Source: Lingula anatina
Lineage: Eukaryota; Animalia; Brachiopoda
Direction: 5' to 3'
DNA: 64,000 nucleotides
Assembly (NCBI GenBank): GCA_051362555.1
Contig: CM120644.1
Coordinates: forward strand, 7,944,954 to 8,008,953
Shown: piece after piece, positions 1-30,900 of the stretch
How the letters are laid out: each line of letters starts with the position of its first letter
How positions within the stretch are numbered: the stretch's first letter is position 1
Notes under the pieces: generated by a model
Seen by the model: only the letters and a program-made list of their open reading frames with translations
Database searches by the model: none
Told to the model about the DNA's origin: nothing
Program-made: the position numbers and the translations under genes

Positions 1-318
1 TTTGCATATTAATAACTGCCTGTACATATACTTTTTCATCATTTCCACTTTTCAAAACTAACTTCCTTATAAACAACATAATGTCTGTATATATTTACAT
101 GCTTAGCTGCATATGCTTTCAGAAAAAAACAAATTACAGCTGTGTGATGCACTAAAACAAACTACAATGATAGTAATTTCTGTTTTGAATCAACAGCTAC
201 AGTTACAGCATAAAAATTGTTCATCTCCAATATTTCTGTATAAGACTGATTGTATCTAGAGCATCTTCAACAGGAAACAATGCTATTCATGTACTTATAT
301 TTTGTCCTCTCATTCAAG

Positions 319-3300
319 TCCAGCGTGTTATGCAGACATAAAGCCACCCACACATCTGCCAGGCCATACGTTTGTGCCACATGTAACAAAGCTTTCTCCA
401 GGGTCTCCACCCTGAACGCCCATAAGCTGATCCACTCGGGTCAAAAACAATTCAAGTGTGAACAGTGTGGCAAGCAGTTCCATCAGAAGGGTAACTTGAA
501 GAACCACATGTACACTCATACAGGTAAGAGTGGGGGATAAGTGGAACACCCTTTGTTTGTAGGACTGATCTAGACATGGTGCACCGGCTGCAGAAAAAAA
601 AAAGCAATCAGTCATGTATTTTGGCACTTTAAAAATGAAATGTAGTGAACTGTGAAGAATACTAACAGGGTTCTTGATAATTGTTACTGCAGACTTGACA
701 AAAGAAAAATGAACAATGCATTGTAATTTGTAGGCAAGATATACACATCATTTTTATTACAAATGACAGAATCCTTTGCTGTCTAGCTGCTGATCCTGCC
801 CACCATTACCATTCACCTGTCATCACCAGGTTTGAAGTGGCAGCTCTTGTTTCACATTATCATTGTGCCATTGATTTATTTCTCTAATTGTCTTTAAACA
901 TATGAAACACAACGGAATCCTTAAAAAATTCTGTTTTGCATTCAGTTTAGTTCTATAAAGATAAACTTTGGTATATAACCTTCATGTACATATATAGGAT
1001 ATGGTGTAATTTCTGTCACTGGTTTCAAGATGATTATAGGTATGTTTCTCAGTTAACAGGATGCAGATTTTTAATTTGTCAAGTTTGGCATTGAAATGAA
1101 AGCCTTAAGTCACATTTATAGAAAGAATATACATTTGTAAGTGAGATTATAAAAATGCTCTGGGGAGAGAGCCTCGGGGGTGGGGGTGGGGGTGGGGGGG
1201 TGGGGGAGGTTGTAGAAATGCTCTAATATTGGCCAGTTGGTGAGTGTTGAATCTGCATCCAGAGTTGGAGAGTGTCATAATTTGGTTCAAATTAATTGAT
1301 CTTAGCATTGTGAAGAAGTTGGTTTTAAAATTTTTAAAAATGAGTCACAAAGTTTACTTACTAAGTTTAGCCAATTGTATTACATTTTATAACCATTTTT
1401 ATTTAATTTATTTATTTTTCACAATATTTTGAACTTTGTTTTGTTCTTTCTTTGAGATGTTCAGCTGATACAATTTTTTAGGCTTTGAAGCCAGTAAGTT
1501 AACTCTTTTAAAATGCAGTTTAATTGCTTGACATGTTTAGTATATTACACTGGATTACAGTATCTGTTCTATTCACAAGTTTCAAATTCTTTTTCAACTT
1601 GACTTGGCCTATAAATTTTTTTACCAATTATTTGCAAGCACTTTTATTCATTAAAATGTTATGGACTTACTTGAAAGTTTTAAATTTAAATTTTGTCGAA
1701 TAGTTATATATTTCCTGTGTTTACTGTTTATTAAAATGTTTTCTAAAACTAAATGCATATATACCAGCATATGAAAGTAAACATTTTGGTTTGTCACAAG
1801 TTTCTGCTTGCCAAGGTAACAAACTTTAAAGTTACCATTAGACAACTAACATTCAATAGTGTTCAAGTTGGAAAAACACAGTGGACTCATGAAGATAATT
1901 TTACATACTGTAGTTGGATATCAGTGTTAAACAGTCTAGACTGAACCCAAAAAATCTAACACTGTTAATTAAATAGACTCTTGTGTAAATTTTGTAAGTG
2001 AAGCAATTAAAAAATAAGTATCCTGTATAAATAGAGTATTAAACGGTAAAATTTATTTCAGTTGCAATTAATTTGTGATTTTTGTTTTAGGTGAAAGACC
2101 ATTTGCCTGTCCCTTGTGCTCCAGAAGCTTCAACCAGCGCTCCAATCTCACCTATCACATTTCACAGTGCCATAGCAAGCGTAACTCCATCTACAATTGT
2201 CAGCTGTGTGGAGAGGGGTTCCGCACCAAGAGCAGTCTTATGACCCACGAGGCTGTTAAACACACCCAGCAGACCCTGAAGCCTGATATTCAGACTCTCA
2301 TCTTTGTTCCTACAACCCCTGCAACCAAGGGCCGGATAGGTCAGATGACATGCAAACTTGACGATGGCACAATGACTATTAATCACCAGGAATACCTCAG
2401 CCGAACAAAGAAAAGAGCAGAAAAAGCTAACGCTCAGGCTGGGGAAGAGGCAGGAGAGGCTGATATGGACATTTCTGCCAGCAGTTATCATGGAGAAATT
2501 GCTACTGAGATATTGAAACTGCTTAATAAGAACTCCAGTAATGTCCAGCCTCAAAATCAACAGGAAGTGGCGGAAACGGTGTCGTCTGCTGAAAAGGACA
2601 CATCAGAGGAAGACCCAGAAGATGTAACTGGTCAGGTTGAGGTTGATGGAGAGAAAAAGGAAGGGGAAGCCAGTAAGAGCTCTGTGTCATCAGACGTGAA
2701 AGTCTTCTCCTATAAAGGCGAAAAATTCAAAGTTTTGGCATCCATGGTTCCACCAGAGCAGAGTGTTGAACAGATCAGATCCCCCTCCAGAACAACCAAT
2801 CAAAATGCAGCACTGTTATCCAGTCATGAGTCCACATTATCTCCATTTTCCCAAACGTCAGTGACCACTGCCCAAATTTCACAGAATAATGCAGATGAGA
2901 GGGTGCAGAAATTACCTTCTGTTCCCATGATAAAACCAGTAGCTTTTGACCAAACAGGCACTGCCATAGTACAGCTGACGGTCAGTGAAGGGGATGCTCC
3001 GACATATGGCCGCATGCTCGCACTGGATAGAAATGCCACTGGAAAGGGATCTAGCTCAGGTGGCATGGCGTTCAGAATTGAGCCTCTTGTCCAAGAGGAA
3101 CTAACTCACATTCAACAGCTCCTGTCTTCAAAGCCAGTGCCAAGTTCCAAGCCAGTGACAGTTTCAAATATTGCACTTTCATCTTCTGCTTTGACCTCTG
3201 TAACAGTTCCATCAGTGGTGACAACAACAACAACCTCTCAAACAACAGTGCCAGTGCCATCTTTAACAGTAACATCACTAATGCAACCAACAGCAGCAAT

Positions 3301-6300
3301 GGGCACACTGCCAGCAGTTACTGTAACATCAACAGTAGCAGCACATCAAGCCTCAGGTGGAAGCACTGCACAGTCTCCTAACAAAACTTTACCATGCAAT
3401 ATCTCCACCTCTGTAAGAAATGAAACCCAGTCTACCCATTTGAATGATGGTAAGAAAAATGAATCTTTACCAGTAATAGCTAATCCACCAGGGGGCGCAG
3501 CTTCTCTTCTGCTGTCTATGGCGAATATTGCAGCTAAACAACAAGAGAAACAACCCAGTGTGCTGAAAGAATTGCTAGGAATAATGAGAAGCAGTGGGAC
3601 ACTCACTTCTGCTTCCCTAACACAATCTGTGGCAAGAACAACTAACACAGTGACTGAGGGAGCCAACAGGGTTAGCAAGAGCTCAACTAACACAGTGACT
3701 TCAAACACAGAGGATGCAGCAATTGTGTCCATGCCTAATCCACCTATTCTTAACCCTACTAGCTCAGAGAATGTGGGTTTCATTAGAACAGCAAAAAAGA
3801 CAGACGCAGTCATCAGTGCTGGAATACCTTCTAGCCTTCCCATTAGTACTTGGTGTGATCACAGCTCCTCCAACACAATCACTGCTGTCACATCTAACAC
3901 AATGAGTCGGCCACAAATTGCCACTGCTCCTCCTAAACAGTATGAGATCACTCATCATAAGCTGAAGTCTGGTGGTAAAGTTGAACGCATTCTCCTCAAG
4001 CATGGTGCCAGTTCTGCAGGATCTGGGATATCTGCACCTACGTCTGCTGGTGTGAGAATTGTAACTAGGGGGCAGCAGGGGTCTGTCTCTTTGGCCATGG
4101 CAGCCCAGATAGAAAAATTCAGGAAGATTGCCCCTAAACCTAAAACTGAGAATGAAATGGAGAAAATGGCCAGTCTACAGCAAAAACCAACCAACCAAAT
4201 GACAGTGGCAGGACAGCAACTGGCTTCTCTTAGTCAATCTCAGCTCACTCACCTGATGAATGCAGTGACCCCTGAAAGCACCTACCACCAGAATCAACCT
4301 GTCATGATGCCATCATCCCTACCAACTGGACAGGCTGGTTTGACCAGTGTGCAGAGCAATACTGGACAGACATTTCCAACTGGTCTCCTGATTAATACAC
4401 CCAATGGGCCCACCTTGATTCCACTGTCAGCCTCACAAGTCTTACCACTTGTGATGCAGAGTGGGCTTCCCCCTGGCGTTCCTCTTCTAGGTCAAGGTGA
4501 AGGCCAAATTGGCATTACTCAGCAAGAAAAGGAGCAGCTATTGTTATCAGATTCTGGGAGCTCTGTTGATAATATCATGATGACACCACCAGGTAAGTTG
4601 AATGGCATTCTTATTCAATGAAAAATGTTCCTAACAGAATTATTTAAACTGGGAAAAATGTAATTATCCATGCCCAGTCTCCGAGAAAGATGTTCTTTTG
4701 TAGATTTTTTCAAAAATTTATTTGTTTTTTAACACAAAAATGGCTGATATCAGAGTATGGATGATTCTGCCATCCTCCAGATTTGATTTAGAAAAATAAA
4801 AAAGAATACAAACATTAACTGAACTGAGTAAAATATTTAATTGCTGAATAGAATTTTGTGTGCACGTACCTCATCCTAATGAACTGGGGCGACAAAATTA
4901 ATGTTTCACAGAAGTTTTAACATGTCTGCAAGTCCCCTATCAATTCAGTCCTGAAACTTTTAAATTAATGCTCTGTTTTTACAGTCTCGTCAGATGACAG
5001 CCAAACTCAGTCAGGTAGCAGCAATGTAACTGGTTACAACAAGATCAAAGAGGTGCTGAATGTGGCTGATACCACAGGTGGTGGCTCCTCTGCTGGGCAG
5101 GATGCTGATGGAGTACCAAAGGTATGGGCAGTCTTTCTTTCTGTCTGTCTGTCCCTTAGTCTGTGTGGGTGGGTGGCTGAGTGGATGTGTACATGCTTGT
5201 ACTTGTGTGTCTTAGCTCATGGGAGAAGGCATGAATAATACACTTGTGACAAGTTGTTTGTATGGTTTTATTCATTTGGATGCTTTTCTGAGTGTGTGTT
5301 TGTGTGTGTTCAAATGTGTGGCAGCTCTTGATTTAAAACTGGTTCCTTAAATATTTCCATCTGTGCCTTAAATTGATTAAATTTGATGACACTATGTATA
5401 GGTTAGCAATCCTGTTTTATTTTCATTAACTATTTAAATCTTTTACTGGGCTTACAAATTTGTGTAGTTAACAGTGTTTTATCTCTATCTCAAAGCCTTT
5501 GGCTGGTCTACTGAGAGTACAGGTGAACTATTCCCTGTCCTGCTGCCTTATCTGTGTTGAAGACATGGGGTAGGGTGAACAGTTATCTTCCGTGCAGATT
5601 ATGCAACGGGACGTAGAATAGTTCACCTGTGCTCTCAGTTGGCCAACAGAATGCCCCCTCCCACCAAATCTATAGCCCTGTGAACTCTGTCACCTGTAGG
5701 CAAGTTGTTATCACCATGAAAAGAGCAGGTGAGGTTATCTGTCACCATTCCACTATTGGAGGCAAAATTTATTATGAATTAATTGATTTTTAAAAACTTT
5801 TTGTCATTATTTTGGTGTCTGGAGGAAATGTCTTTTAAATGAGCAAAGTCACTGTATAAATGGGTGACATAATCTTAAATTACTTTGTCTAGTAAATAGT
5901 TTGAAAAGTACCTCAAACATAGCCATTAAAAAAGTATTATACCATTGTTTCCACCCGTGTGTTTTTGCATATAACCTATTTATTACCTGAATTAAGTCAT
6001 TGTTTCCATCCCTAGATCTATCTAACAGGATCGGTTCATCTCCACGAGGTCCCTAGCTAAATTGCTTTCAGCCCAAGTCGCATAGACATCTGGGACACCC
6101 ACTAAAGCTGCTAAAGGATAGTAAATTACCTCTATCAGCCTCAGCGGGAGTGACAGACATCAAAGCTGCCCAAGTTAATTGTAATTAAAAGAGAATCCCC
6201 TCAGAGATGGTTTGATCCAAAGTTAGTTCGCTAGTCTCTGGGAATGGTCTCATAGATTAAGCCACCTCCTCTTGTTTCCAAAATATATAATCACTACCCC

Positions 6301-9048
6301 TTTTTGTATTCTACTCAAAGTCGGGGAATTAGCCCTGTGTGTACAGTATTTTTTAAGTACCACTAATGTAAAGAAAGACTGTTTGTGTGTAAACTAAGTT
6401 CATGTACTGTATACATAAAGAGTTGATTTCTTTTTGTTTACACAGGATGTGAGATTATGCGAAAGGCAGTAAGTTTTATGCCAAGGCATTGACACCCCTG
6501 TCTGAGCTTATCTTTAAGATAGGTTTGAACTGGCAAGTTGTGTGCCTGTTAGGCTGAATTACGATATACACTTAACACTTGGTCAAAGTCACTGGGAAGA
6601 CTTTGTCAGTGAGAAGATGGGGTTTATAGTTTCAGTACCACTGTTCCTAGCCATGAGCTTGTTACTAGGGCTCTCTGGCTATAGTGCTGGAGAGAAAATC
6701 CTGTTATTTCCTTTTACTCAATTCTTTAACTCTAGAACTATGAATGTAGAGAAGATAGCTGTCCTGTTACGGGATCATGGTCACTCTGTCAGCATGCTGG
6801 TTGGGGATCGTTACAAGCCTAGGATGAACATTTCTGGAATAGAGTTGATTGCATACAAGATGCCAGAGTCTTGGGTCAACAAAGGAGGAAACTTAGACTT
6901 AAATGCTACCATGAATTACATTGGAAAGGATCCACTGCCGGTTATTTTAGAAACTGAACAGCTGGACTACAGATTGGTTGAACATTTGTTTAGTGACAAG
7001 GAAATGGTGCAAAGTTTAAGAAGTGCAGGATTTTCTCTGTTCTTCTTTGACTTTGTCAATGTTGCTATTGGTTATTTTTTAAATGAATATCTAAACATTC
7101 CCAGTATAGCATACAACAACTTCGGATTTTTTGAAAGTTGGTTTTTCTTCCACCAACCTACGTTTCCCTCCTATATGCCATATACATTTGCAGATTTGTC
7201 GGACAAAATGACATTCTGGGAACGGCTTCAAAATACAGACATTTTGATGGAATATGAACAGTGGACTAATAATAAGATTGAGCACATGGACAAGATGAGG
7301 CAGAAATATCTTCCCAATGTAAACTGGCCATCTTCGAGACATGCTTACCAACGAGTGTCTCTCATCATTTCAGCAAATGTCAATTTTGCCTTTGATTACC
7401 CCAGACCAGTCATGCCCCATGTCAAACCCATCTCTGGACTCCTCTGGACGCCACCCAAACCTCTCCCCAAGTTTTATAATGACTTAATGGCATCTGCAAC
7501 CCATGGAGTTATTTTGATGAGTTTTGGGACCTTGGTTCCTACCTTGCCAGAAGACAAGGCTGAAGTTTTTGCCAAAGTATTTGCAAAGCTTCCACAGAAG
7601 GTGATTTGGCGCTACCAAGGCATTGCCCCAAAGTCTCTTGGAAGTAACACCCACCTCGTAGAGTGGTTTCCTCAGAACGATCTTCTTGCCCACCCTGCCA
7701 CGAAATTGTTCATCACTCACTGTGGAGTGAGCAGCACGTGGGAGACGCTGTACCATGCTGTACCTGTGGTGGCAATTCCGCTGCTTTGGGATCAACAACA
7801 CCAAGCTAGAAAGTTGAAGGAACGCGCCAAAATTGGTGAAATTGTGGGGTTTAGTTCATTTTCTGAGGCAACATTAGAGAATGCCATAAACAAAGTTCTT
7901 AATGACGGGTCTTACAAGGAAAATGCAATACGGATGTCCAAACTTATGCAAGACACACCTATGTCTGGACAAGACGAATTGTTGTTTTGGGTTAACTATG
8001 TTATTCGGCACAATGGAACACTTCATTTTCACTCCCAAGCTGCTTACCGCCTGAACTGGTACCAGTACTTTTTGATAGATGTTATTGCCTATAAAATAGT
8101 AGTGAACTGTGTATTTTATCTTCTTTATCTTTTCCTGGGGATTTCATTAGTGAAAATGCTGAAATTTATGTTCTTCTCCAAAGGGAAGAAAACTAAAACA
8201 CAATGACAATTAAGATTCAATTTTTTGTCAACATCGCCAGTATGAAATATCCCAGAAGTAAAGTTTCAAAAATGAGATGGGTCAATAAAATATTTTAAAA
8301 AATTGGATTCCAACTTTTTGATTCTTCATAAGAGTGTATATGTGTATTTCGTGTGGATTATAACTGCAACTAGTACTAAGGCATTTTACTGTGACATGGT
8401 AAAACAAACGACAATTTGTACAGCTAATTAAGTTTTCATTTTATGATTTTTTCAGATTATTTCTCTTATTGGATATTGTTGTCCCTTTTATCTCATCGGT
8501 TACTCGTATCCAGAAACAGAAATTGAAAAAAAAAATAATTGTAGCAATAATAATAATAAATCGCTTTATTACAGCTGGACAGCTCCAATATCAACAACCT
8601 GTTACATTTCCTGCGCCTGTTAGATACGGACACCCCTTCTGTGCCGGCGCCTGATAGTTCAATCTCCTCAACAGTAGGTGGAGCCACTGTATCATCCCAA
8701 TCTATTACAAATAACACGGGGCCATCAACACACAGGAGCACGACACAACAGTCGCCGAAAAAAGACTCATTGCTGGTCCACTATTTGACACATCTCCCTA
8801 GCGGTGAGTTGTGTATGTTGGCCACGAAGACTTGGGTGTTCCAGTTTATTAATTCATTTTATTTTATTTTATTTCTTTTATTTTATTTTATTTTATTTTA
8901 TTTTATTTTTGAGGAGGAGGGGTAGGGGGCTTTAGATAAACTTCTTTGGTAACGTAAACATTATTGTTATTGAAACGTTCATAATAGATGTTTAATAAAG
9001 GGGAAAATGAGTGAAGGGAAAATGTACTCAACCTTAACACCACACTCA

Positions 9049-9088
<40 letters not shown>

Positions 9089-9421
9089 TAAAATAATAAT
9101 AGAAAGAATGAATGAATGAAGAGAAAGATAAATTAAGGATTTTTAAGGAAAGTCTCGGTCAAAGCACCTGGAATTTGTGTACTTTCAGGTCGTATTAAAG
9201 GTAGCAACAGCGACCACCAGCATGGCGATCCCTTATTACAAGGCGTTAGTCACGTTCCTAGTCACGTGCCAAGGTCAACGGGTTATGGAACAGAAGACGA
9301 ATCATCAGAGAGTTTGATACCCCGAAGTTTGATATCCGAATCTCCTGAAGACAGTAGTAAAAGTGAAGACTTTCAAACTGTACTTGAGAAGATGTTTTCT
9401 ATTTTGAACTCTCAAGAGTAA
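319..9421 (+). CDS. C2H2 zinc-finger protein with Fez/Fezf-like fingers and a long low-complexity C-terminus; 5' end lies outside the window
   Basis: Exons 319-523, 2091-4592, 4985-5121, 8575-8803, 9189-9421 (TAA 9419-9421). All introns GT-AG with matching phases 1,1,0,1. The first junction rebuilds the HTG|ERPF linker. One partial plus four complete C2H2 fingers, then an S/T/Q/P-rich region. The two last exons are supported by phase and open frame only. Confidence 0.85.
1176..1209 (+). repeat. (GGGGGT)n G-rich tract, potential G-quadruplex, intronic
   Basis: Five runs of at least 5 G separated by single T, flanked by the short direct repeat aaatgctct. Confidence 0.6.
5510..5639. mobile_element. 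Small MITE-like inverted-repeat element
   Basis: actgagagtacaggtgaactattc (5510-5533) and gaatagttcacctgtgctctcagt (5616-5639) form a 24-bp inverted repeat with one mismatch. Confidence 0.55.
6004..6251. mobile_element. Degenerate copy of a ~220-250 bp palindromic MITE family (other copies at 43866, 45217, ~47040, 54990)
   Basis: Shares gatctatct...ctaaattgct...gtgacagacat...gatccaaag...tctctgggaatgg with the other copies. Confidence 0.55.
6446..6468 (+). other. Candidate 23-nt microexon upstream of the UGT ORF
   Basis: Strong acceptor ttctttttgtttacacag| at 6445 and donor CA|gtaagt at 6469. Reads DVRLCER+CA in phase 0. Confidence 0.5.
6617..8206 (+). CDS. UDP-glycosyltransferase (GT1, UGT1/2-like ER membrane enzyme), intronless CDS, 529 aa, nested in the zinc-finger gene intron
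   Basis: Signal peptide [28 protein letters not shown] signature [55 protein letters not shown] followed by a TM helix, KKTKTQ dilysine ER-retrieval tail, AATAAA at 8284-8289. ATG 6617 preferred over the GTG at 6542. Confidence 0.95.
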   Translation: MGFIVSVPLFLAMSLLLGLSGYSAGEKILLFPFTQFFNSRTMNVEKIAVLLRDHGHSVSMLVGDRYKPRMNISGIELIAYKMPESWVNKGGNLDLNATMNYIGKDPLPVILETEQLDYRLVEHLFSDKEMVQSLRSAGFSLFFFDFVNVAIGYFLNEYLNIPSIAYNNFGFFESWFFFHQPTFPSYMPYTFADLSDKMTFWERLQNTDILMEYEQWTNNKIEHMDKMRQKYLPNVNWPSSRHAYQRVSLIISANVNFAFDYPRPVMPHVKPISGLLWTPPKPLPKFYNDLMASATHGVILMSFGTLVPTLPEDKAEVFAKVFAKLPQKVIWRYQGIAPKSLGSNTHLVEWFPQNDLLAHPATKLFITHCGVSSTWETLYHAVPVVAIPLLWDQQHQARKLKERAKIGEIVGFSSFSEATLENAINKVLNDGSYKENAIRMSKLMQDTPMSGQDELLFWVNYVIRHNGTLHFHSQAAYRLNWYQYFLIDVIAYKIVVNCVFYLLYLFLGISLVKMLKFMFFSKGKKTKTQ

Positions 9422-9548
9422 AGAAGTGGTTAAGTCTGTAAAAATAACTTATAATATTAGTGGATTGTCTATATTTTGTAAATAATGCATAGTGTAAATT
9501 GCATGCTGTCTTTTATTATGCTTTTGTAACATATAATATAAGACCAGT

Positions 9549-9583
<35 letters not shown>

Positions 9584-10126
9584 TGTAGATTTAAATGCTG
9601 AGATTTTTACCACAAACTTCCTTTTTGCAAAACTGCTGGTTAATCTCCTGTTACTCATTAGTCAATTGCAAATCTTCATTCGAGAAAATTGCTCTTTTTG
9701 AACTGTGATTTGCAAATAGACGCATATGATAATTTGTTGAGGCCATTATGATGCTTGTGAAGGAGGTGTCATTTGTGGCGGTTTGTTGGCCATCGATGAA
9801 GTAGGGTCTGTATTGTGTCATTCCATTAAAATGTCACATGAGAAAATCACACATTTGTAGTTTTGGTATGAAGGCTTTGTATCACAATCGCCGTTGATTT
9901 CTGTCAAAGTTGAAGTGCATTTTGGTATAATGCAGACAAAATTATTGGGCACGTCAGAATTATGCAAATGTTACATGAAATGTGCCAAACTGACGGGTCT
10001 CAAATGTTCAATTCTTTTTTAATGAGGCTAAATACTAAGATATTAGTGTGTACTGTTCACCTGGATGGAATAAAAAAAAGTCTGAGTGACTGGTCTCTTT
10101 GGTAACTGTAATCACTTTGTATGAGA

Positions 10127-13146: not shown

Positions 13147-16100
13147 CAAATGAATATATAAATAAGTTAGAAGGTGAACCGTTAAACTTCTGTGTTCGCA
13201 TACTTAAGCTTTAAACGATCTCATACCCTAGACCCGCCACCCCCATGTCCCGAAAACAATCACAGGTGTAAGTTCGAGTATTACCTGTGTCTTGGTCATA
13301 AGTGAACGCGAGGGAAACCCACTTGTGCCTCTCAAAAAGCACAGAAGGACTTGTGGCGGAAGATCCTTGGGTACTTCCAGCCGAGTCTATTCTCTTATGT
13401 AAAAGGGCGCCAAATTTATTGTCCTGTTGGACATAAAAATGTGGGCCATGGGCGGTGTTGCCGCCAACCATTTTCCACGAAAGAAATAACATATTCGTCG
13501 AGCTATCTTCAGGATACATGTCCACACTCCAAGTCATGGAGCGCCGAACATCCAAAGCAAGGTTTTGTGGGATCGTGACATTACAGTCAGCGGTATTGCA
13601 AAAGACAAATGCTCCGTTCGGTTCGTTTTTCGGCCCAGGTGCATACGTGACGTCAGAGCCAAGAATTCCATGGTTCTCATTGCCAGAAACGTCGTTGGCG
13701 CCGTATTGCTGGTTGAGGTGCCACATGCCCACGGGACGGGGCTGAACTTCACCTAGCGATGATATTCAAGAGAGTCATACATATATATCTTAAACACTGT
13801 TTTTGATATAAATTGAGTTGAAATAATGATTATAAAACACAAAACTAGCATGTCTAATCATAAAAATGGCATTATTAAGGCCGCACTTGTATATTACAAG
13901 AAACGATTTGTTTTTCCAGGGGAAGGCATCGAAATGCTGTCACACGAAGAAACCTGTCCTCTCGAAATAACTATCTGATGTATTTTATCAAACCACAATC
14001 TACTTTAAAAGAGAGCGTTTTTGCACAGTCCTTTACCTATGAGCAGCAGTTGTTTTCCAATATTAAATAGAAATTTAAATTGAATTGCTTTCCTAGAAAA
14101 TCTCCTACCTTCCCGCAAAAATAAAAATAAAAATAAATAAATAAATAAAATAAAATAAAATATAATATAATAAATTAAAACAAAATAAAATAAATAAAAG
14201 ATTTTGCAACTTAACGCTACCTGTAGCCCAGCCAGATACCGCGAGCGTGCGCAGGGCAATACGTACCTTCAGTGAACCCTAGAATGTTCTCAGGCGAGCA
14301 GATATCCATGGCCTTCTTAATCTGGTATTCACTCAGAGCCACGTCGTACAACTTAACACAGCTTATATCGGCCTTTAAAAATCTATGGTCATTATAGGTA
14401 GCATTTTTAGCACCTAAAAAGAAAAGAAAAGGAGACATAAGGTGGTTAAAGAAAGCACTGGAAAAGTGAAACGAACCTGAGATACTTTGCTTTAATAGAA
14501 ATCGGAGTGCAGAAAGTATGTGTGTTGAAGTAAATGAAGTGAAAAAATGTGGAAGTTTAAAAAATATAATCATAACAAGAGAAGGACATTACGACGGAGC
14601 AGAGAAAAGGAAAATATGATAATGATGTTGAGGTACAAATGGTCGCAAAAAAACACGTTTTACATTTACCCATAGATATTGCATGCAGTCTGGCGTCTTC
14701 ATGGTCTTACTTCACGACAGAATAAGAATACCGGTGTGCAAGAGGATGATGAATAAATGTATAAAAACAAATCTTTTTGAAAAGAAAAACCAAACTTACC
14801 TATTCGAACAAAGTATTGTGTAGACAATTCATACTGTCCCACACTGTTTGTTCCAAATAGTTCGCCATCTCGGTACACGGTATGAACGCCAGCGGTATAG
14901 TCATATGTGACTGCCACATGGATCCACTGATCATGAAGGAAGTAGCTTCCGTGGGTAGCTGATGCCTCGTTTCCCCAGCCATCGGTACGACGACGAAAGG
15001 CGACATAATAAGAATTGGTGTCTGGGTGGAGCCACATTGCCAAAAAGCCCCACCCGTCCGCTTGTGTTGGGAAATCGAATTGAAATACTGGGGCGGTAGT
15101 TGTGGTTGAGTCTGTATTATAAAAGTATAGGAAAAGAAATGAGTAGTTATTGCACACAGGTAGGAAGAAATGTTTGCATTAATAACGTGCAATTTGAACT
15201 TGTTCCTTTATTGACGGACATTTTGGAAGAAAATGACCATTAAATAATCAAAGCTGATATGTGAGACAATTAGGCAATTAACCAAAACGTGCTCGAAAAA
15301 TTGTACATGCTCCTCTGGTTATGAGACACCCCTCACCAAATTATACTTCCTACGTGATTTGGATTGACAATATATTATGAAGCTAGATGGTAACGCCCGC
15401 ATTCTCAATAATGTTGGGTGATGTTGGGGGGGGGGGGGGGGAGAGGAGGGGTAGGCGAATGCAGATGCACAACATCCTATGCCAGAGAAAGTTCCTAGGG
15501 AAGTTTAATGATTGTAAGGTAGAACCAGGGGAAAGTTTGACCATATTAAACAACATCAACTAGGAGTATTAAAACTAAAGGTGAAGGCAAGGAAGATGGT
15601 GAAGGTGGAGGTTAAAGGAGGGTCTTAACACTAAGATAAAAGGAGGAAATTCAATAAGTGGACTTTGTAGGGAGAAAACAGCTGGGAGACAGAAGAAGGG
15701 GTGTTACGAAGCACAGAGGGGTCTTTCGACAAAAAGACCAAGCTTACCTATATTAATCCATGCCATAAAGGTTTGAGAGAACCTAGTATCCAGGTAACCA
15801 TTGTTAGGCAATTCGATATACGAGTCCATACTTCCAGCGAGACGAACAGCTCCGTTGTTGTCGCCATGGGGACCCGTGACATACGTCAGACCACTCATAG
15901 TAGCTTCATTTCCATGGCCTGTGACGTCATGGGAGCCATGAGCTGCGTCCAATGGCCACCAGCCAACAGGGAGTGGATGTGCTGAAACAAACAAAAGGGG
16001 GAAAAAAGATGAATGAATTTTTTAACATAATCATTTATTGACATGAGCGTTTTCAAGGGAGGGGTGGGACTGCAAGTGAACTGTATTATCAAAATCGTTC

Positions 16101-17061
16101 ATATTGTTATTTATCGGGAAGTGCTAGTAATATGTAATACGCATATGTTTATAGGCGGATATCTTAACGCGCTGGAGTAACATGCCAGTTCAATCGAAGA
16201 TGTACTGTCAGCAGATGCATAGCGTATAGATGATAGGTTGCCCATCGCAAGTTCACAACAGCTGAATATGGTTCCCATTAAACGCGTTTCCTCGACGCTT
16301 CTTTAAAGACAATATTGTACATTCTTAAGAACCACAGACTGTGGTCTCAATCATTGAATATACTCACTGTCCAACTCTGTGCTGCCCTCTGGTGTACACC
16401 TCCGCATGGTTCGCTTGATGTCATGCTGAGACAGGGCCACATTATACAACTTGATGCAACTTATTCTCCCCTTTGTCAGGTAGTTTGCCCCATTGTCATA
16501 AGGCTTGTAACCAATGCGGATTTTACTACCTGCGGTCGCAAGTTCTTGCTGTGTAGGGTTCCAAGAATGCACGAGTACTCCGTTCCGGTAGTAGAACACT
16601 TGGTTGGATGCGTAGTCGTATGTAATGGCAAGATGGCTCCATACACTGTCTGCGAAGAAACTAACGCTTGTGGAGCCTCGGTTTACAAAGGAGCGGTCAA
16701 AGTGGTAGACCCCGAGATTGTTTGGGTCCGCGTGGTTCCAGATATGAAAACCCCAAGTGTGGCTTGGATCGTCTGTATCGTAATCAAATAATGGACCATT
16801 TCCCCCTTTTGGCATGAAATATGCTGTAAAGGTGTAGGAATAACGGACGTCTAGCTTGCCATTGTTAGGTATGACGATGTGAGAGTTAATAGTGCCCGCT
16901 AAGGCGTAGGCGTCGTTTTTCCCGCCAAAAGGGCCCTGGGTTGGATATAACTCTGATGAGAGGGTTGCATGGTTTCCGTTTCCGGTTACGTCAGTTCCTT
17001 TGTAGCTGGACTCAAGAGGCCACCATCCAACAGGATACGGGAGTTCTGAAATGATATCCCA

Positions 17062-17110
<49 letters not shown>

Positions 17111-18764
17111 CTTGACATTTAATATGGAATATTTTTTTCGAAATAATTTTTTATCAGTTTTTTCCTATTTTGCGGACTGATAAATGAAAATAAGGATTAA
17201 AATCGTGTTTTAATAACTTTAAATTATCTATTTGATGTCATTGTGACATCAGTTCATTAATGGAATTCGCCAGAGAAACAAACAAAAACACATTGCCTAT
17301 TCTATGTCATACGACTCCCATTAAAAGAGATATTTTGGATCTCCATAGTTTCCAAATTATCGTATGTAAAAGGGTAATACGCTCCACAAAAGACCCTCAT
17401 GTCAGTTGCTAGTCACAGTAATGGTCGTTGTTACGCCTGGCCTCTTCGTGGCTGTTGTCAGCGCTCTCAAGCGGCAAGGCATTTCTTGAGGGTAGGTTTT
17501 TAGAGTTCAATCTGGAATAGCATTCTAGGCATCGGTCTGAAATTGTCCAATCTGGTCCAGTTTTGTTGTAGGACATGTAGGCAGTTGATTGGTGAGTAAT
17601 GGTCTACCGAAATATTGTCTATGTGGTTCAAATGTGGCGATTTTGATGACCAGGGTAGTTGCTCATCCCCTTGGTTCTGTAAGTTATCTGCTATTAAAAG
17701 TGCTCTGTGTGAACCTGCAACCTCCTCGTGCAACCTAGAATTGTTCCTAAGGTGCCCCCTATCAAATGATAGTCAAGTGGTTCCGAGATTATCCCTTTAT
17801 TTGATCTGGTTCAGGTTTTCGTCGATGACTACCATTGGTGTTTTGGCACCAATGTGGAATCTACTCCAAATACTGACGCTGTCAATCACCCTTGTCACTT
17901 TAGACCCGGCATATGCTTCGTCGTAGGCCTCTTCTGGATATCTGTAAACTCTGTTTTGACTAATTGGGCGTTACAGGTGAAATCTGACCTCAATAAAGAA
18001 AGCCACGCAGTTTCAGTGTTCTACCCAGAATCGTTCATGGCCCCCAATTCATTAGAGAAACAGACCACGATGTTTTGCTGTATACAGTGGGTACCTCGGA
18101 GGTCATTAGGTGTTCTTACCTGCTAAAACCAGTTTGGTGTTCGCTAAGGGCTTTGAAAAACGCATTTTAGTGGCAATTTACCCCTCGTTCTGAACGGACT
18201 AAGTGTTTTTTGTTTAGTTGCAGCAGCGTATCCCGAAAGACAGTGGGTCCTGTACCCTGTAGGTAAAATTTTGATACATTGGGGGTCACCTCTGTGTAGG
18301 TACATCAGTCTGGGCATTACTCTATAAAACTGTGGGGACCGTTCCGTTTGGCGCTATGATCTGTCTGGTGATGTCTGTCTTTTTCGCGCCATTCTGCCTT
18401 AGATTAACAAATTTGTAATGCACTTCTTGACTCATCTTACGCACTGCACAACTGGCCGCTTGCATGCAAAATTTCAAATTTTTCTATGCAGTAGTTGCTG
18501 AAATATGGATACTTTTTTGACAGAACCAAGCTTTGCCTAAGCCAAGCTTTGATCAGCCCAAAGGAACACTATCCAATTAAATCACTGCAAATTACATAGT
18601 GTAGCAGCGCAACATGCATGAAAGTCAGTTAATTGGTAGTGACACACATGACTGCATACTTTTACATTCACAAATCTTATATGAAATCGGAGTTATTTTA
18701 AAAAAGAACGTATTTTTACCTAGGTATACCTTCGAAACTGAAATATTCCATATTAAATGTCAAG

Positions 18765-18829
<65 letters not shown>

Positions 18830-19172
18830 TTTTTATGCTTTATTCATTGTAACGTATGCATCTACATGGATAGATGAAAATGTACAAAGGAATGCAAATA
18901 TATATAAATATGAATTATGATCAATAGTGATATTGTATGACTCCTCGTATGAAAAAAATACAAAACATATTTGGCAGAGCCCAAATGGCTCTACCTACCC
19001 AACTGGTTATGGGTGCAGCACAGTCCCTTTTTTGGAAGGCTAACCATAAATACTTGGCAAGAGCTATAATATGTTCGTTCTTCTTACCAGTCATTAGTGT
19101 TTTAAATTTATCCATTCTGGTAAGATGCTCAAAGTGACTATGTTGTTTTTTGTATATTGAATAAAGATCATC

Positions 19173-19238
<66 letters not shown>

Positions 19239-19366
19239 AAAGACAACTTGAGTGTTCTTATTTGCCAAATATTTGCCAAATATATATACTACAAAATAAA
19301 GGGGCAAGCTTAGACATCAATACGACCGGAATGCAATAATGTACATTTGTAAATTGTACATAATTC

Positions 19367-19416
<50 letters not shown>

Positions 19417-22400
19417 CCAATTAGATGACTCTTAATTGCATCCCCAACCACAAAAATTATTTTCAGTGGTGGCACCATTGGAAATATTGATCCATAATCT
19501 GAATTGCACATAGAGCTTTCGACGTCCCAATCAGAGCAAACAATTCATAATTGCCATCATATAAGATGCCACGAGGCAAAAGTACCATCAGAGTCCAAGA
19601 GAATGCAAACATAGACAAGGCCCTGCATGTTTACCTTCTGGGACACACAGCTGGCGAGCATTCCTGATATGGGCTTGGGGTAAAGCCACGTCGTACCACT
19701 GAATACAAGACACGCTACCGGCAAACGACCTAGTATCCGAGTTATATGAGGCATACCGGGACCCTACGTATACATCATACTGGGTGGCGTGTTCCACCTG
19801 GCCTATGTTTGACTGAGTGTTTATCTGAAATGAAGTTATACTTTACTAATAAGAATGAAGAGATTAATAAATGACAGAGGAAATAATAATAATAAAAAAC
19901 ATACCATAGATTTTGAAATTAAGGTGAAAAATAACTAAGATTCACCCCCATTTTTTGAACAAACTGTTATCCGATGACGTTTCTGGCCAAGAACTGCATA
20001 GAGATTTTATTGAAGGAACAACGCTATTGCCTCACCTCGACCAGACGCACTGCTTGTGCTGGCAGTGTCCGCGAATCATATTTCTTAACCTACCTCAGCA
20101 TCTTTCCAAATGGTCATATCCCCAGTCGTATAGTCGTATGTCACACTCACGAAGACCCACGTGTTTGACGTCAGCACACCGCTGCCGTAGAGCGCTGCCA
20201 CAGAGACTGCTCCATCACTCCTGCTTCGAGGGGCAACAACAAGCGTGGTTGTATCAGGATACTGCCAGATTAGCAACCCAAAATCATCGTAAACGGAGTT
20301 TGGGAAATGAAAACTAAACAACGGGCCTTGCGTTGATCCGCCATTGTAAACCCAAGCCGAGAACGTCCACGAGTAACGGGCGTCCAGCTGTCCGTTGTTC
20401 GGGATGTGTATGTAGCTAGATACAGACCCGCCGAAGTTGTAGGCAGTATTACCTACTCCTTCATGTCCAGTCGTCAAGGAAACAGAAAACCCGCTACCAT
20501 GGTTTCCACCGCCACTGATGTCACTATATGTATAGTCTGCGTTCAGAGGCCAAAAGCCTATCGGGCGTCTCCAAGTACCTGGTTTAAAAGAGAAACTGTT
20601 TGTGGAAAATACTTCATGTAAATTAATTAATTGATCGAGTTTTTTTTTGTTCTTCCCAAAAGTGCCCCGATTTTAGTGTGCATCGAACGGCTCACCAAAA
20701 TTTTAGAATTATTAACCTACTCAATGAAGCTCCGTCTTGGGAGTTCCAATCCCTTGCTTCACTAACGCATCCCCTAAAGCACATTATGCGGTCTTTCGTC
20801 ATGGTTATAAATCATTGCATGTGACCCGAAATCTTTGGACTTGTGCGCAGTAGTTAGTGTATTTTTAAAACTTTAAATTCGTATGGTGATGCTCAATATC
20901 AAAGGACGTAATTTTTTTAAATTTAAAATCAATCCACCTCGCCTTTAAATAACAAAACCTCTTTTGAGCACGCTGTCATCTCTTTGTGGCTAATTAAGAA
21001 TTGCAAATGACACGAACAATAGTCATAAAAATTGAGACAAAAAGCAACCTGCCACATAGTAGCCAACAATGCTGCATAGAATCGATATCGATATTCTGTT
21101 TTAATCTCTATATTTAACAATGTCCACATCATGCCATTTCATTGGGGAAATATTGTCAATACAGGGAATAATGACGATCGATTAGTGACTTTCTGGTGGC
21201 GTTTTTGTGTTTAGTTAAAGCGGAAGCTTACGCTCAATAAGGAGACACTTGTGCACGTAAAATAAGACATCGGTCTAACCACATTCGCTTGTCCTTGTTG
21301 AAAATAGTTTTATGTAATATGTTTATAGATAAAGGTTCATTCACGGTGACGGAAGGATTTAAACAAACGTGGCAAATTCGTGTATGTCCCCATTTGTTTG
21401 TTGTAAGAAGTTATGTGTTGATTGCAAGTAAAACGGCATTTGAAGAAATTTCAATAATTTCAATAATTGTAATTTGTTTCAGATGCGGAGAATGAGCATG
21501 ATATCCCCTTGCATAAGTTTTGACAAAGTTAACTGCATTATCCAATAGATTATCTATCAGCAAGCCAGTAGATCATACAATTAAAGCAATAATAACTCTT
21601 CGTTTCGGCCAAAAAATGAATTTTCCTGGAGTAAACAACAATTTTCCCATACTTACCAATGGTTAATGAATCCATTTTTACATTCAAAGTTAGTCCCTGG
21701 TTTTTTTCTTAAAAGTTTGGTTTTTTGTTAAAATCTCTTAAGAGATTTTAACAGAGTATAGACATCAATGGAGGTCACGTGGTCTAAAGACAAGTTCAAA
21801 TATCAGAATAAAAGCTATAACTGCTGTTTGTGTGGTAAAACAGAATATATTATATTTCTATGAGTTATTCACAAGGTTTTTATTATGAAATGTAGATCTC
21901 ATACGAAGAGTTATTATCCCTTTAAGTTTAAATACATCACGAAGAGTTGAAAAATTCCTCAAACTCTAACAAGGGTGTATATGCGTTCCGATACCATTTA
22001 AAAGCCTGATGACGCCGGCCTTACACGGAAGACCAGCTGCGTTTCATATATATCTACTCATTTAAACCCGGAAAAACTAAACTAAAATATCCAAATTTTA
22101 CACAATGACCAAAGCTGCAGCTGAAGTGAGAACTGTGTATACTTTCACGAACGTTGTTCCCTAAGGCTGCCCCCGTGCGCTCCGTTGACTCTCTGTAATT
22201 CCAAACGCTCTACTTTTAAATTAAAACCTTTCATGTTATAAGATCATTTAAATGAAAAATGATAATTCTAATAGCAAAGATAGTGAGAAAATTCTTTTCC
22301 AAGATAAACGGGTTGTGTGCAGTAAATAGTGTGGAAAACGATGTGAATTATTGCATATGTAATTATATAATTACGTTATTGTGAAAAACCAAACTAAAAA

Positions 22401-27957: not shown

Positions 27958-30900
27958 ACAAATGTATATAGAAATATAGGTTAGAAGGTGAATAGTAACA
28001 TTTTTGTATTCGCATGCTTAGGCTTTGAACGGTCTCATACCCTAGACCCGCCACCCCACGTATCCCGAAAACAATGACAGGTGTAAGTTCGAGCATTATA
28101 TACCTGTGTCTTGGTCATAAGCGAAGGCGAGGGAGACCCACTTGTGCCTCTCAAAAAGCTCAGAAGTACTTGTGGCAGAAGATCCTTGGGTACTTCCAGC
28201 CGAGTCTACTCTCTTATGCAAAAGGGTGTGAAATTTGTTGTCCAGTTTGACATAAAAATGTGGGCCATGGCCGGTGTTGCCGCCAACCATTTTCCACGCA
28301 AGAAATAACATATTTGCCGAGCTGTCTTCAGGATACATGTCCACACTCCAAGTCATGGAGCGCCGAACATCTAAAGCAAGGTTTTGTGGGATCATGACAT
28401 TACAGTCAGTGGTATTGCAGAAGACAAAAGCTCCGTTCGGTTCGTTTTTAGGCCCGGTTGCGTACGTGACGTCAGAACCCACAATTCCATGGTTCTCATT
28501 GCCAGACACGTCTTTGGCTCCGTATTGCTGGTTGAGGTGCCACATACCCACAGGACGTGGTTGAACTTCACCTAGTGATGATATTCAGGAGGTTTATTCT
28601 TTAATATCATTACCGCTTTCTATAATTGAATTAATTATCACAATTAATTGAATTGAAATTCTGATTAACACAAAGTGTGTCTTATCAATAAAATAGCTGG
28701 TGCCGCCATTGCCTTAGGCCGCCTTGTAAAGTACAAGAAATGTATTTCCAGGACAACGGACAGCTTAAAACCACACCCTCTTCTCCAGGCGACTATTTGA
28801 TTTATTTTATCAAACCATAATTTACTTTGAAAGAGAAATAATTACTCTTCTACAGTTGTTAACCCAAGAGTAACCGTCGTTTCCAAATATATAAGATTAT
28901 TAGAAATACATTTTAATTGTATCGATTTTCTAGAAAATGTCCCCAAAAACTAGGAGAAAATGCAAACTAATGCCACCGGTAGCTCAGCCTATATACCGTG
29001 AGCGTGCGCAGGGCTCTATGTACCTTCAGTGAATCCTTGGATGTTCTCAGGCGAGCAGATATCCATGGCCTTCTTAATCTGGTATTCACTCAGAGCCACG
29101 TCGTATAACTTAACACAACTTATATCGGCCTTTAAATATCTGTGGTCATTATAGGTAGCATTTTTAGCACCTAAAAAGAAAGGGAGACATTAAGAACAGG
29201 AAAAATGATATGATCCTTTGAGACACATTGCTCTAATTGAAACTGGACTGCAGAAAGTATGTGTTGAATGAAATGAAATAAATATTAAAAATAACTATGA
29301 GGAGGAGAATACGATAATGAAGTTGAGGAAATTGTGATCATGATGATGAGGGGGAGGGAGAAGGGGTCCCAAACAATTAACACATTTCAAATTGCATTCA
29401 GTGGGGAGATTAATAGCATCTTCATAGTCTTACGGATGTGGAAGAGGATGTTGAATAAAGTCACAAAAACAATTCTTGTAAAAGGAAAAACCAAACTTAC
29501 CTATTCGAACAGCGTATTGTGTGGACAATTCATACTGCCCCAAGGTATTTATTGCAAATTGTTCGCCATCTCGGTACACAGTATGAACACCAGTGGAATA
29601 GTCATATGTGGCTGCCACATGGATCCATTGATCGTGAAGGAAGTAACTTCCGTGAGTAGCTGATGTTTCATTTCCCCAGCCATCGGTACGACGACGAAAG
29701 GCGACATGATAAGAATTGGTGTCAGCGAAGACCCACATTGCCAAAAAACCCCACCCGTCTGCTTGTGTCGGGAAGTCGTATTGAAACACAGGGCCTATAC
29801 CCGTGGTTGAGTCTGTGTGATTAAAATATAGGAAAAGATACGAGAGATTATTGCACGTGGTTACGGAAATATTCGTGTATAAATAACGTGAGTTCTGTAA
29901 TGGCCTCTTACGATAAATGACAAACGTTTTGGAAGAAAAGGGTCATTGAATAATCAAATCTGACATGTGAGACAATTAGTCACATAAGCAAAATCTGCTC
30001 AAAACGGATTTATATATGATCCTCCTTTATCAGAAAGGTCGTGGACAGGTTTAACAAGGACCACCATTTTGGCGGCAAATCAGCACGGTCAAGGTGGTAA
30101 AAGGGACTCCTTGTCAACCAAAGAGGAGGAAAAGGGGGAGTAGAGCAAAGAATAGATCTAGAAGCAGAAGGGAGTGGAAAGAGGTGGAAGTGAGAGTGGG
30201 AATTTGGGAACATATTGGACATATTGGAGTAGGAAACTAAGTGGATGATAAAGTGATGGGGAAATGGTTTTGGAATAAGGAAAGCTGAAGGCCAGTCAGT
30301 TGTGGATTTGGACAGGGCACACTTCAACAAGAGAGAGGAGCACTAGACAACATCATTTTCCAGAGAAAGTACCTAGGGAAGTTTTGGGATCGTAAGGTTG
30401 TAGCTGACGAAAGTGTGACCAAACAGCACCAACTAACAGTAAGGGTGTTATAGTTAAAGGTAAAGGCAAGGAGGATAGTGAAGGTGGAACCAAGGATAAA
30501 AAGGTGGAGGTTAAAGGAGAAGTTTAACACTAAGTTCAAGGAAGAAAATTTAAAAAGTGGACTTTGGAGGGAGACGACAGTTGGGAGACAGTAGTGGAGG
30601 TGAAGGTCTTTATTGTATCGACAGAGAAGAAGAAAAAGGACATAGAAACATGGTGATGAAACAAAGAGGTGCACTGAGCAATAACAGACAAGAATAAGGT
30701 GGGAAAAGAACTTCATCAGGGCAAGAATGGCAGAAGGAAGGATAGCAACACACCGTACCTATATTAAGCCATGTCATAAAGGTTTGAGAGAACCTAGTAT
30801 CCAGGTAACCATTGTTAGGCAATTCGATATACGAGTCCATACTTCCAGCGAGACGAACAGCTCCGTTGTTGTCGCCATAAGGACCCGTGACATACGTCAG

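Follow-up and report, generated by a model that had tools for sequence, protein, structure and literature searches.

Can a UGT gene lying in an intron of a zinc-finger gene, on the same strand, be spliced into its host, or are the two independent genes that happen to share a stretch of chromosome? This question is raised by a locus in a 64,000-nucleotide stretch of Lingula anatina DNA (the window, to which all positions refer). A preliminary description had proposed a three-way switch, by which the locus would yield a full zinc-finger protein, a dicistronic mRNA, or a zinc-finger-UGT fusion reached through a microexon. The host gene, the nested gene, the splice-like sites between them and the available RNA reads were examined in turn.

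RNA evidence was taken from four of the nine runs listed for the species (X1, X4, X5 and X7), with 6-25% of each run's reads, while X2, X3, X6, X8 and X9 lay outside the analysis; splice joints were listed only when supported by at least three reads. The host gene encodes C2H2 zinc fingers and matches the L. anatina protein XP_013404160.1 (P0121) at 98% identity; the first 250 residues of this protein are encoded upstream of the window. On the forward strand, a coding exon with C2H2 fingers at 316..523 was matched by tblastn to residues 251-321 of this protein (97%), with an approximate 5' edge and a donor after 523. It is followed by a large exon at 2091..4592, which carries the last two fingers (Pfam zf-C2H2) and a long Ser/Thr-rich region (98% to residues 320-1152), and by a 137-nt exon at 4985..5121, in which 44 of 45 residues agree. 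The latter begins in phase 1, closes in phase 0 at the donor AAG|GTATGG, and is supported by RNA depth and by joints on both sides, 4592>4985 with 8 reads and 5121>8575 with 12 reads in two of the four runs. The enclosing intron (5122..8574, forward strand, 3453 nt) is removed in one piece by a GT..AG joint, for which X1 gives 9 reads and X7 gives 3. Beyond it, also on the forward strand, the host frame is carried on through 8575..8803 (74/76 residues, with RNA joints) and the last coding exon with the stop, 9189..9421 (76/76), the joint 8803>9189 having 20 reads in all four runs. RefSeq holds a single protein in the host's cluster, XP_013404160.1, with the identical 5121>8575 joint. The phase-0 end of exon 4985-5121, its clean joint to 8575 and the connection of the exons from 8575 to 9421, all claimed earlier from the letters, are therefore borne out by reads and by the reference protein.

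The automatic name of XP_013404160.1, mucin-17, is wrong for a zinc-finger host. The host fingers matched only generic C2H2 clusters in the ESM Atlas, and a protein search with the 417 C-terminal residues returned XP_013404160.1 and one weak match, with no zinc-finger-UGT protein. The weak match (P0155) carries DUF4397 and was rejected as an unrelated protein.

Inside the intron, a forward-strand coding sequence of 529 amino acids without a coding intron extends over 6617..8206, from an ATG at 6617 with A at -3 and G at +4 to a stop codon at 8204-8206, and matches PF00201 with 313.5 bits against a cut-off of 19.5. Its same-strand nesting, as first described, is upheld by these coordinates and by the 12 reads that splice over it. 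Residues 1-19 are hydrophobic (Kyte-Doolittle 2.26), and the hydropathy peak at 1-23 is a predicted signal peptide; a C-terminal membrane helix at 484-521, predicted from hydropathy only, is followed by a KxKxx end, a dilysine ER tail. The N-terminal layout is that of the paralogues, and the C-terminal domain aligns to UGT2B7, UGT2B10 and UGT2B15 structures at E 1e-40 or better. The protein has GT-B domains, and the nucleotide-sugar-binding signature pattern matches residues 350-393. By domain, signature and membrane features, the predicted protein is an animal membrane-bound UGT (GT1, PF00201).

The nearest sampled relative is XP_013412569.1 (P0001) of L. anatina, at 73-74% identity and with SH-aLRT 99 in a quick tree in which the nested UGT groups with Lingula UGTs; fish Ugt5-type matches are about 33-37% identical. 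No protein closer than 74% was present among the 120 of 351 matches listed, and an exact look-up of the protein from either ATG returned no record in the protein collection. The alignment to XP_013412569.1 is unbroken in frame, with 185 of 210 positions identical in the C-terminal domain and 169 of 245 in the N-terminal one; an intact frame combined with identity concentrated in the C-terminal domain indicates long purifying selection. The records place XP_013412569.1 on a contig of 490,344 bases and the host protein on another, of 385,308 bases, which makes the former a paralogue elsewhere in the genome. As a mark of retrocopying, no convincing flanking direct repeat was found among the repeat families listed, 20 out of 25.

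A catalytic His in the N-terminal domain, with a partner Asp, is typical of UGTs though not universal. In the nested UGT, Arg40 occupies the His column of vertebrate UGTs. Across 116 aligned matches (4 of 120, each longer than 630 aa, having been dropped), this column holds 80 His, 19 Arg, 15 gaps, 1 Pro and 1 Leu, and Asp145 is kept in 114. Arg occurs at this position in a UGT clade of Lingula and Owenia. Judged from sequence, Arg40 puts the canonical UGT mechanism in question, not the family membership given by the domain. The set of open-access papers searched yielded no report of Arg in place of the catalytic His in UGTs, no relevant paper on a Lingula UDP-glucuronosyltransferase, and none on a nested gene in the L. 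anatina genome; nor was the role of the His spelled out in the available text of PMC8781437.

The case for a fusion depends on the region 5' of the UGT, and all of the splice-like sites proposed there are present. A 23-nt microexon was proposed at 6446..6468 (forward strand), with a good acceptor and a modest donor, GCA|GTAAGT, at 6469. It is followed by a candidate UGT 5' UTR intron at 6469..6609 (forward strand), for which three possible acceptors lie between 6480 and the ATG, before 6523, 6553 and 6610, each of them in frame with the microexon. At the level of the letters, the path 5121>6446-6468>6610 is stop-free and in frame with the UGT ATG, as had been stated. None of the three acceptors is in frame when reached directly from 5121, so the microexon is required. 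When the 6469 donor is ignored, a TAA at 6470 ends the host frame after 8 codons, again as described. The sites differ in quality: the 6446 acceptor has 10/12 pyrimidines, equal to the best real host acceptor, together with a branch-like site, whereas the microexon donor scores 4/7 against 5-7/7 in the host's four donors, and the 6610 acceptor, with 4/12 pyrimidines, falls short of the 8-10/12 found in host acceptors. A branch-like TTAAC lies at 6572, inside the candidate intron.

How readily such a pattern arises by chance was gauged on 1154 overlapping control tiles of 1495 nt each. A microexon-like pair of the observed strength occurred in 112 tiles, and an in-frame, stop-free microexon path of that strength in 18; any in-frame route, direct or through a microexon, was found in 414. 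Among tiles with a pair, the in-frame share was 18/112 at the observed strength and 106/475 at a looser score, so the frame match is rarer than the one-in-three chance first assigned to it. A second microexon-like pattern, of 29 nt, lies at 5700..5728 (forward strand), with an acceptor of 9/12, a donor of 6/7 and zero RNA depth in all four runs; its donor may mark where an upstream 5' UTR exon of the UGT ends. In zebrafish Ugt5, as far as the available text of that study goes, UGTs with a single coding exon ordinarily have small noncoding exons on their 5' side (PMC2819257), and by analogy 6446..6468 likely belongs to the UGT 5' UTR. Such an exon, which the preliminary description had itself allowed for, would be a likelier reading of the microexon than the three-way switch.

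Additional elements populate the intron. An imperfect inverted repeat at 5495..5654 has 69-nt arms that are 74% complementary and may be MITE-like. A dispersed repeat at 6002..6256, with a related copy at 47061-47214 (blastn identities 68-76%), attracts, on both strands, reads that stem from other loci, and the RNA reads there show loose ends and many mismatched letters. The heptamer at 6284..6290 (forward strand) is the sole TATATAA in 5122-9900 and a candidate core promoter for the UGT, with a chance expectation of 0.34 per 1.5 kb; a first exon starting from it would contain at least three upstream ATGs (6366, 6402 and 6447). An AATAAA at 8284..8289 (forward strand), 78 nt 3' of the UGT stop, is a candidate polyA signal, with a chance occurrence of about 0.13 per 100 nt.

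RNA reads bear on whether host and UGT are joined. Of the three junctions proposed for inspection, 5121-8575 was found, while neither 5121>6446 nor 6468>6610 (nor the direct 5121>6610) appears among the joints listed at three or more reads in the four runs; no listed joint other than 5121>8575 leaves the 5121 donor. Depth over 6391-6571, the bin covering the microexon, is zero in all four runs, and no loose read end falls at 6446 or 6610 among the 19 of 38 loose-end rows listed. Production of the full zinc-finger mRNA, one arm of the proposed switch, is thus supported by its 12 reads, but the switch itself is unsupported, no microexon joint being listed. The UGT has a sense-strand depth of about 4-9% of that of the host, and in the stranded runs X1, X4 and X5 the first-mate direction of its reads is that of the host exons. 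In X1, reads occur in 7 of 9 UGT bins and in none of the 9 intron bins outside repeats (Fisher p 0.002, the bins not being independent); their confinement to the UGT, on the host strand, argues against general intron retention. Host exon depth is about 16 after the UGT intron and about 12 before it, and so is not lower downstream. A single bin, 7296-7476, accounts for about half of the UGT depth in X1; because paralogues are conserved there, some of these reads may be cross-mapped. Contrary to what cross-mapping would give, the highly conserved stretch 7477-7838 has no X1 reads, and X1 and X5 also have reads over the N-terminal part, in which protein identity to the nearest paralogue is only 69%. 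The nested UGT is likely expressed weakly. At its depth less than one fusion read would be expected, and the 95% upper bound on the fusion share of the host is 22% if there are zero reads and 39% if two lie below the listing threshold; a fusion as a major product is therefore disfavoured, and a minor one is beyond the reach of these data. In the four runs, no reads mark a UGT 5' end, promoter or 5' exon, no start cluster is seen, and no 3' end reads occur at the polyA candidate.

Taken with the nesting, the 5121>8575 reads, the intact ORF and the low sense-strand RNA, which make a nested gene likelier than a fusion switch, we consider the locus, with a probability of about 0.7, to be an ordinary same-strand nested gene, in which a separate, weakly expressed UGT is likely driven by its own intronic promoter. 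The zinc-finger gene splices out the whole 3453-nt intron together with the UGT, which would be transcribed from the candidate TATA at 6284 or from a start farther upstream. The sites at 6446, 6469 and 6553 or 6610 may be explained by one or several short noncoding exons at its 5' end, the transcript would be cleaved at the polyA signal at 8284, and translation from the UGT's own ATG is predicted to give an ordinary ER-membrane glycosyltransferase. The gene may have arisen through dispersed duplication as the UGT family expanded in Lingula. On this reading, the 23-nt piece would fit the frame by coincidence, or at most give rise to rare mis-spliced transcripts. Several points speak against the nested-gene reading: no read marks a UGT 5' end, and depth is zero in all four runs over bin 6391-6571, part of which an intronic first exon would occupy; the TATA match is near chance level (0.34 per 1.5 kb), and an exon starting there would contain at least three upstream ATGs; a path as strong as the one observed arises in just 18 of 1154 tiles, all three acceptors before the ATG fit its frame, and the 6446 acceptor equals real ones; and half of the X1 depth over the UGT may owe something to cross-mapping.

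A rival idea is that the UGT serves as a minor alternative terminal exon, with 5121 spliced to the microexon and onward to yield an in-frame zinc-finger-UGT protein of about 1740 aa, in which the signal sequence, now internal, would anchor the zinc-finger part at the ER. The frame is stop-free with any of the three acceptors, such a path at the observed site strengths is found in 18 of 1154 tiles, the 6446 acceptor is strong, a polyA-like signal lies 3' of the UGT, the RNA data are blind to an isoform at 4-9% of host level, and a precedent exists in the portion of the CSB-PGBD3 report available (PMC2268245). Nevertheless, this arrangement appears unlikely: no such joint is listed against 12 host joints, which sets it apart from CSB-PGBD3 in abundance (at most 22-39%), the microexon donor (4/7) and the 6610 acceptor (4/12) are weaker than real host sites, and in-frame routes are common (414 of 1154 tiles), with another microexon-like pair at 5700-5728. 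Neither the host C-terminal search nor the search for UGT relatives produced a fused protein, which is weak evidence; out of 4478 candidates the latter search gave 23 long relatives (927-2645 aa), with identities of at most 39%, none named Lingula and none with a zinc-finger Pfam domain. The signal peptide also looks cleavable, as in the paralogues, and so would probably be lost as an anchor. That the microexon fusion is made in some particular tissue or stage, with the fingers cytosolic and the UGT in the ER lumen, as the fit of all three acceptors would allow, seems quite unlikely.

Other routes to UGT-containing RNA fare no better. The UGT might share the host promoter: a noncoding or short first exon of the host, lying upstream of the window, would be spliced directly either to 6446 or to one of the acceptors preceding the ATG, and a normal UGT would be made from the shared start. 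The 6446 acceptor does need an upstream donor, evidence for an intronic promoter is weak, and zebrafish Ugt5a1-5a4 have one upstream noncoding exon in common, according to the available part of PMC2819257. Against this stand the several host exons that would be skipped over more than 6 kb and the lack of loose ends at 6446 or 6610 among the 19 of 38 rows listed, and with the host 5' end lying outside the window this option is hardly likely. In the form earlier called dicistronic, host transcripts would sometimes be joined 5121>6446 and read on through the 6469 donor, so that translation stops at the TAA at 6470 while the RNA runs to the UGT polyA site; the product would be a zinc-finger protein with a shortened C-terminus, and the UGT frame would stay mostly untranslated in a 3' UTR. 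Such transcripts would account for the few sense-strand reads over the UGT with no need of a second promoter, and they suit a strong acceptor, a modest donor and a stop after 8 codons. However, 6446-6609 would then be exonic, and depth over 6391-6571 is zero in all four runs (weak evidence, about 1 read being expected). A second ORF after some 1200 codons is rarely translated, and purifying selection on the UGT protein would go unexplained if no other mRNA served for its translation. That hosts of same-strand nested genes may be mis-spliced is proposed in the available part of PMC3814207; here a shortened host of this kind is very unlikely. Least credible of all is a silent or nearly silent UGT whose reads derive from paralogous genes. 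Although the absence of an exact protein record, the lack of any match above 74% among 120 of 351 listed and the one conserved bin with half of the X1 depth fit this explanation, the N-terminal reads of X1 and X5 (nearest paralogue 69%), the conserved 7477-7838 without X1 reads and the intact frame make it highly improbable.

Read as an ordinary nested gene, the locus resembles the same-strand single-exon nested genes of Drosophila melanogaster, as portrayed in the available text of PMC3814207 and PMC5174743: a short gene without coding introns lies in a long intron of an unrelated host, the host is spliced normally and the nested gene is expressed at a lower level. It differs in belonging to a brachiopod and in that the Lingula UGT probably has one or more 5' UTR introns, and so is not strictly single-exon. 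Compared with zebrafish Ugt5, the nested UGT is not an orthologue and has Arg in the His column, and the accessible portion of PMC2819257 does not describe host-intron nesting for the family. With CSB-PGBD3, an exon-trap fusion in intron 5 of ERCC6 and the kind of model that the preliminary description had put forward, the locus shares an intact ORF in a same-strand intron, an upstream acceptor and a downstream polyA signal; in that system, however, the acceptor is directly in frame and the fusion matches the host product in abundance (PMC2268245, in part), while the Lingula locus needs a microexon and shows no listed fusion read beside 12 host joints.

If the fusion were true and regulated, it would represent an unusual ER tethering of a transcription factor through a detoxification enzyme, in which signal cleavage could release or retain the transcription factor. 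TRIMCyp is said to be a fusion similar to CSB-PGBD3, and a true Lingula fusion would be comparable to either. As most likely read, the locus is one more same-strand nested gene, which is of use for annotation, the UGT seeming to be missing from the Lingula protein set and its host being mis-named, while the Arg at the His column in the Lingula and Owenia UGT clade may interest enzymologists.

The 5' edge of the window falls within a plus-strand C2H2 zinc-finger gene whose Lingula anatina record, XP_013404160.1 (P0121, 1351 aa), is 98% identical over 833 residues to the translated large exon. The DNA thus matches this brachiopod but, being short of full identity, probably comes from another assembly or individual than the record. 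By tblastn, residues 251-1351 of P0121 are carried by five plus-strand exons, at about 316-523, 2091-4592 (the large exon), 4985-5121, 8575-8803 and 9189-9421. P0121 has been automatically named mucin-17, yet six C2H2 fingers are present, for which the ESM Atlas gave generic clusters only. Its N-terminus may be similar to the SNAG repressor motif, and its fingers may resemble those of Fez/Fezf proteins. Between 5121 and 8575 lies an unbroken 529-codon ORF (6617-8206), the sugar-transferase gene UGT, which matches PF00201 at 313.5 bits against a cut-off of 19.5.

Four of nine Lingula-labelled RNA runs were examined over 4400-9800, using about 6, 6, 25 and 6% of the reads of X1, X4, X7 and X5, of which 165, 47, 102 and 32 were placed. 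Three GT..AG joints (donor>acceptor) were seen in these runs, every one belonging to the host: 4592>4985 (X1 7 reads, X7 1), 5121>8575 (X1 9, X7 3, X4 and X5 0) and 8803>9189 (12, 4, 1 and 3 reads across the four runs). Because these joints are the host's, 5121>8575 among them, nesting is directly shown, and the 12 reads across 5121>8575 bear out the preliminary description, which had placed UGT inside a host intron. At several sites in host exons (5060-5083, 4447-4483), X7 departs from the window sequence and X1, X4 and X5 agree with it; given these differences, one species label may cover divergent populations.

UGT itself is sparsely covered, with reads in 7/9 of its bins in X1, 2/9 in each of X4 and X5, and 1/9 in X7, and in the stranded runs these reads share the host's direction. 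The nine non-repeat intron bins, two of which overlap repeats skipped in read placement, were empty in X1, X4 and X5, with one at depth 0.18 in X7. Depth in X1 was about 12 and 16 over the flanking host exons and 1.1 over UGT, or 0.6 without bin 7296-7476, which may include paralogue reads. The dispersed repeat at 6002-6256 attracts abundant RNA reads of other loci on both strands; it recurs at 47061-47214, has internal palindromic similarity, and lies a short way 5' of the candidate UGT TATA box. An imperfect, MITE-like inverted repeat with 69-nt arms occupies 5495-5654.

The locus had been proposed to switch among a full zinc-finger protein, a dicistronic message and a zinc-finger-UGT fusion through a 23-nt microexon at 6446-6468. 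Every site cited for this model is present, the path 5121>6446-6468>6610 keeps frame free of stops, and reading through the 6469 donor leads to TAA at 6470. Rated by simple consensus (donors out of 7, acceptors by pyrimidines out of 12), the four host donors range from 5 to 7 and the four host acceptors from 8 to 10, while the microexon has an acceptor of 10/12 and a donor of 4/7, and the 6610 acceptor scores 4/12. A second microexon-like pair, at 5700-5728 (acceptor 9/12), has the better donor (6/7) and no reads in the four runs; 12 such pairs, this one included, occur over both strands of the window. In a control of 1154 overlapping 1495-nt tiles of the window, which are not independent and include real exons, 112 held a pair as strong as 6446-6468 and 18 an in-frame, stop-free path to an ATG further on; at an ordinary host-acceptor score these numbers rose to 475 and 106, and 414 to 449 tiles offered any in-frame route, direct or through a microexon. 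Of the tiles that hold a microexon-like pair, only 16-22% also have a fitting frame, so the match is rarer than the 1-in-3 chance first assigned to it, a result in favour of the original proposal. Also in its favour, each of the acceptors that lie between 6480 and the ATG (6523, 6553 and 6610) keeps the microexon frame; spliced directly from 5121, none of the three is in frame. Since branch-like sites precede 6446 and 6610, both may be real splice sites, as would be expected if UGT had noncoding 5' exons there.

The original interpretation is partly supported: UGT is nested and the joint for the full zinc-finger protein is made, but the three-form switch is not supported. A major fusion is disfavoured in these samples, because the share of joints from 5121 to acceptors other than 8575 has a 95% upper limit of 22% if no joint is hidden, rising to 39% if two are. 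The reading we prefer, at a probability of roughly 0.7, is a separate, weakly expressed nested UGT with an intronic start, the host being spliced across the intron. The host removes the whole intron, UGT included. UGT is transcribed at a low level, subject to cross-mapping, from a start that probably lies within the intron; one or more small noncoding 5' exons ending at 6468 may come before a small intron with its acceptor at 6553 or 6610, and translation from the ATG at 6617 (A at -3, G at +4) would yield a type I ER membrane glycosyltransferase. Candidate signals are a TATATAA 333 nt 5' of the ATG (chance 0.34 per 1.5 kb) and an AATAAA 78 nt 3' of the stop (0.13 per 100 nt), each weak alone.

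An in-frame fusion made as a minor form would suit the frame results, and if host splicing produced all UGT RNA, it would draw off 4-9% of host transcripts, equivalent to less than one read against X1's nine. No joint into 6446 or 6610 was among those listed for the four runs, where joints and loose ends were reported from at least three reads and so short an exon (23 nt) may go unplaced; bin 6391-6571 had zero depth in all four. Weak evidence against a fusion comes from 23 UGT relatives of 927-2645 aa, none named Lingula or bearing a zinc-finger family, from the host's single-member cluster, and from its C-terminal 417 residues, which as a query returned only P0121 and an unrelated weak match. 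Such a fusion is considered unlikely, and slightly more so are transcription of UGT from a shared upstream promoter and read-through of the 6469 donor into a truncated host form; a silent UGT copy is rated lowest.

In Drosophila melanogaster, 71.27% of nested genes are oriented against their host, and of those that share its strand 72.53% have a single exon (PMC3814207); PMC5174743 gives similar figures. Same-strand nesting is therefore a minority class, but a common one. The proposed fusion resembles CSB-PGBD3, in which an ORF within an intron is used as an alternative terminal exon and the resulting fusion equals the host product in abundance (PMC2268245); comparable abundance was not found at the Lingula locus in the four runs. 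No paper on the locus itself was found in the open-access literature searched.

Other features of the window include a minus-strand array of LamG/concanavalin-like exons at 10127-33375 (PF13385 in three ORFs tested), within which a block at about 13211-20672 recurs at about 28096-33375. Three paralogous minus-strand exons (40559-41053, 48066-48644 and 54120-54662) begin like a signal sequence and include a coiled-coil-like stretch; the one tested had no Pfam match. A multi-exon plus-strand gene at 56449-59460 encodes glycoside hydrolase family 76 (PF03663, E 3.6e-23), and its origin in an animal may merit a look, since the family is found chiefly in bacteria and fungi.

Among the best 120 of 351 matches, the closest relative of UGT is its Lingula paralogue XP_013412569.1 (P0001), at 73-74% identity and recorded on another contig than the host; a quick tree of 27 rows groups the two with SH-aLRT 99. 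Of the two domains, the sugar-donor one is the more similar, with identity at 185/210 positions against 169/245 in the N-terminal one. The frame being unbroken at this distance, the copy is probably functional and fairly old. Residues 1-19 are hydrophobic, a second hydrophobic stretch spans 484-521, and the C-terminus ends in KxKxx, a layout shared with paralogues and vertebrate UGTs. No database protein among those 120 exceeds 74% identity, compared with 98% for the host, and none is recorded on a contig of the host's length; that assembly therefore appears either to lack UGT or to leave it unannotated, and the same seems true of the reference Lingula protein set. Since no close parent is among these matches, an annotation gap is favoured over recent insertion; no convincing target-site duplication was found flanking UGT among 20 of 25 repeat families.

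Residue 40 of UGT (6734-6736) is Arg in a column that holds His in 80/116 aligned relatives, a residue we take to be the catalytic base; its partner Asp is retained in 114/116. Arg occupies the column in 19/116 matches, among them 11 named Lingula and one from Owenia fusiformis (P0022), and the open-access literature searched yielded nothing on Arg replacing the catalytic His. The substitution belongs to the whole clade rather than to this locus, and may point to another mode of catalysis or another type of acceptor.
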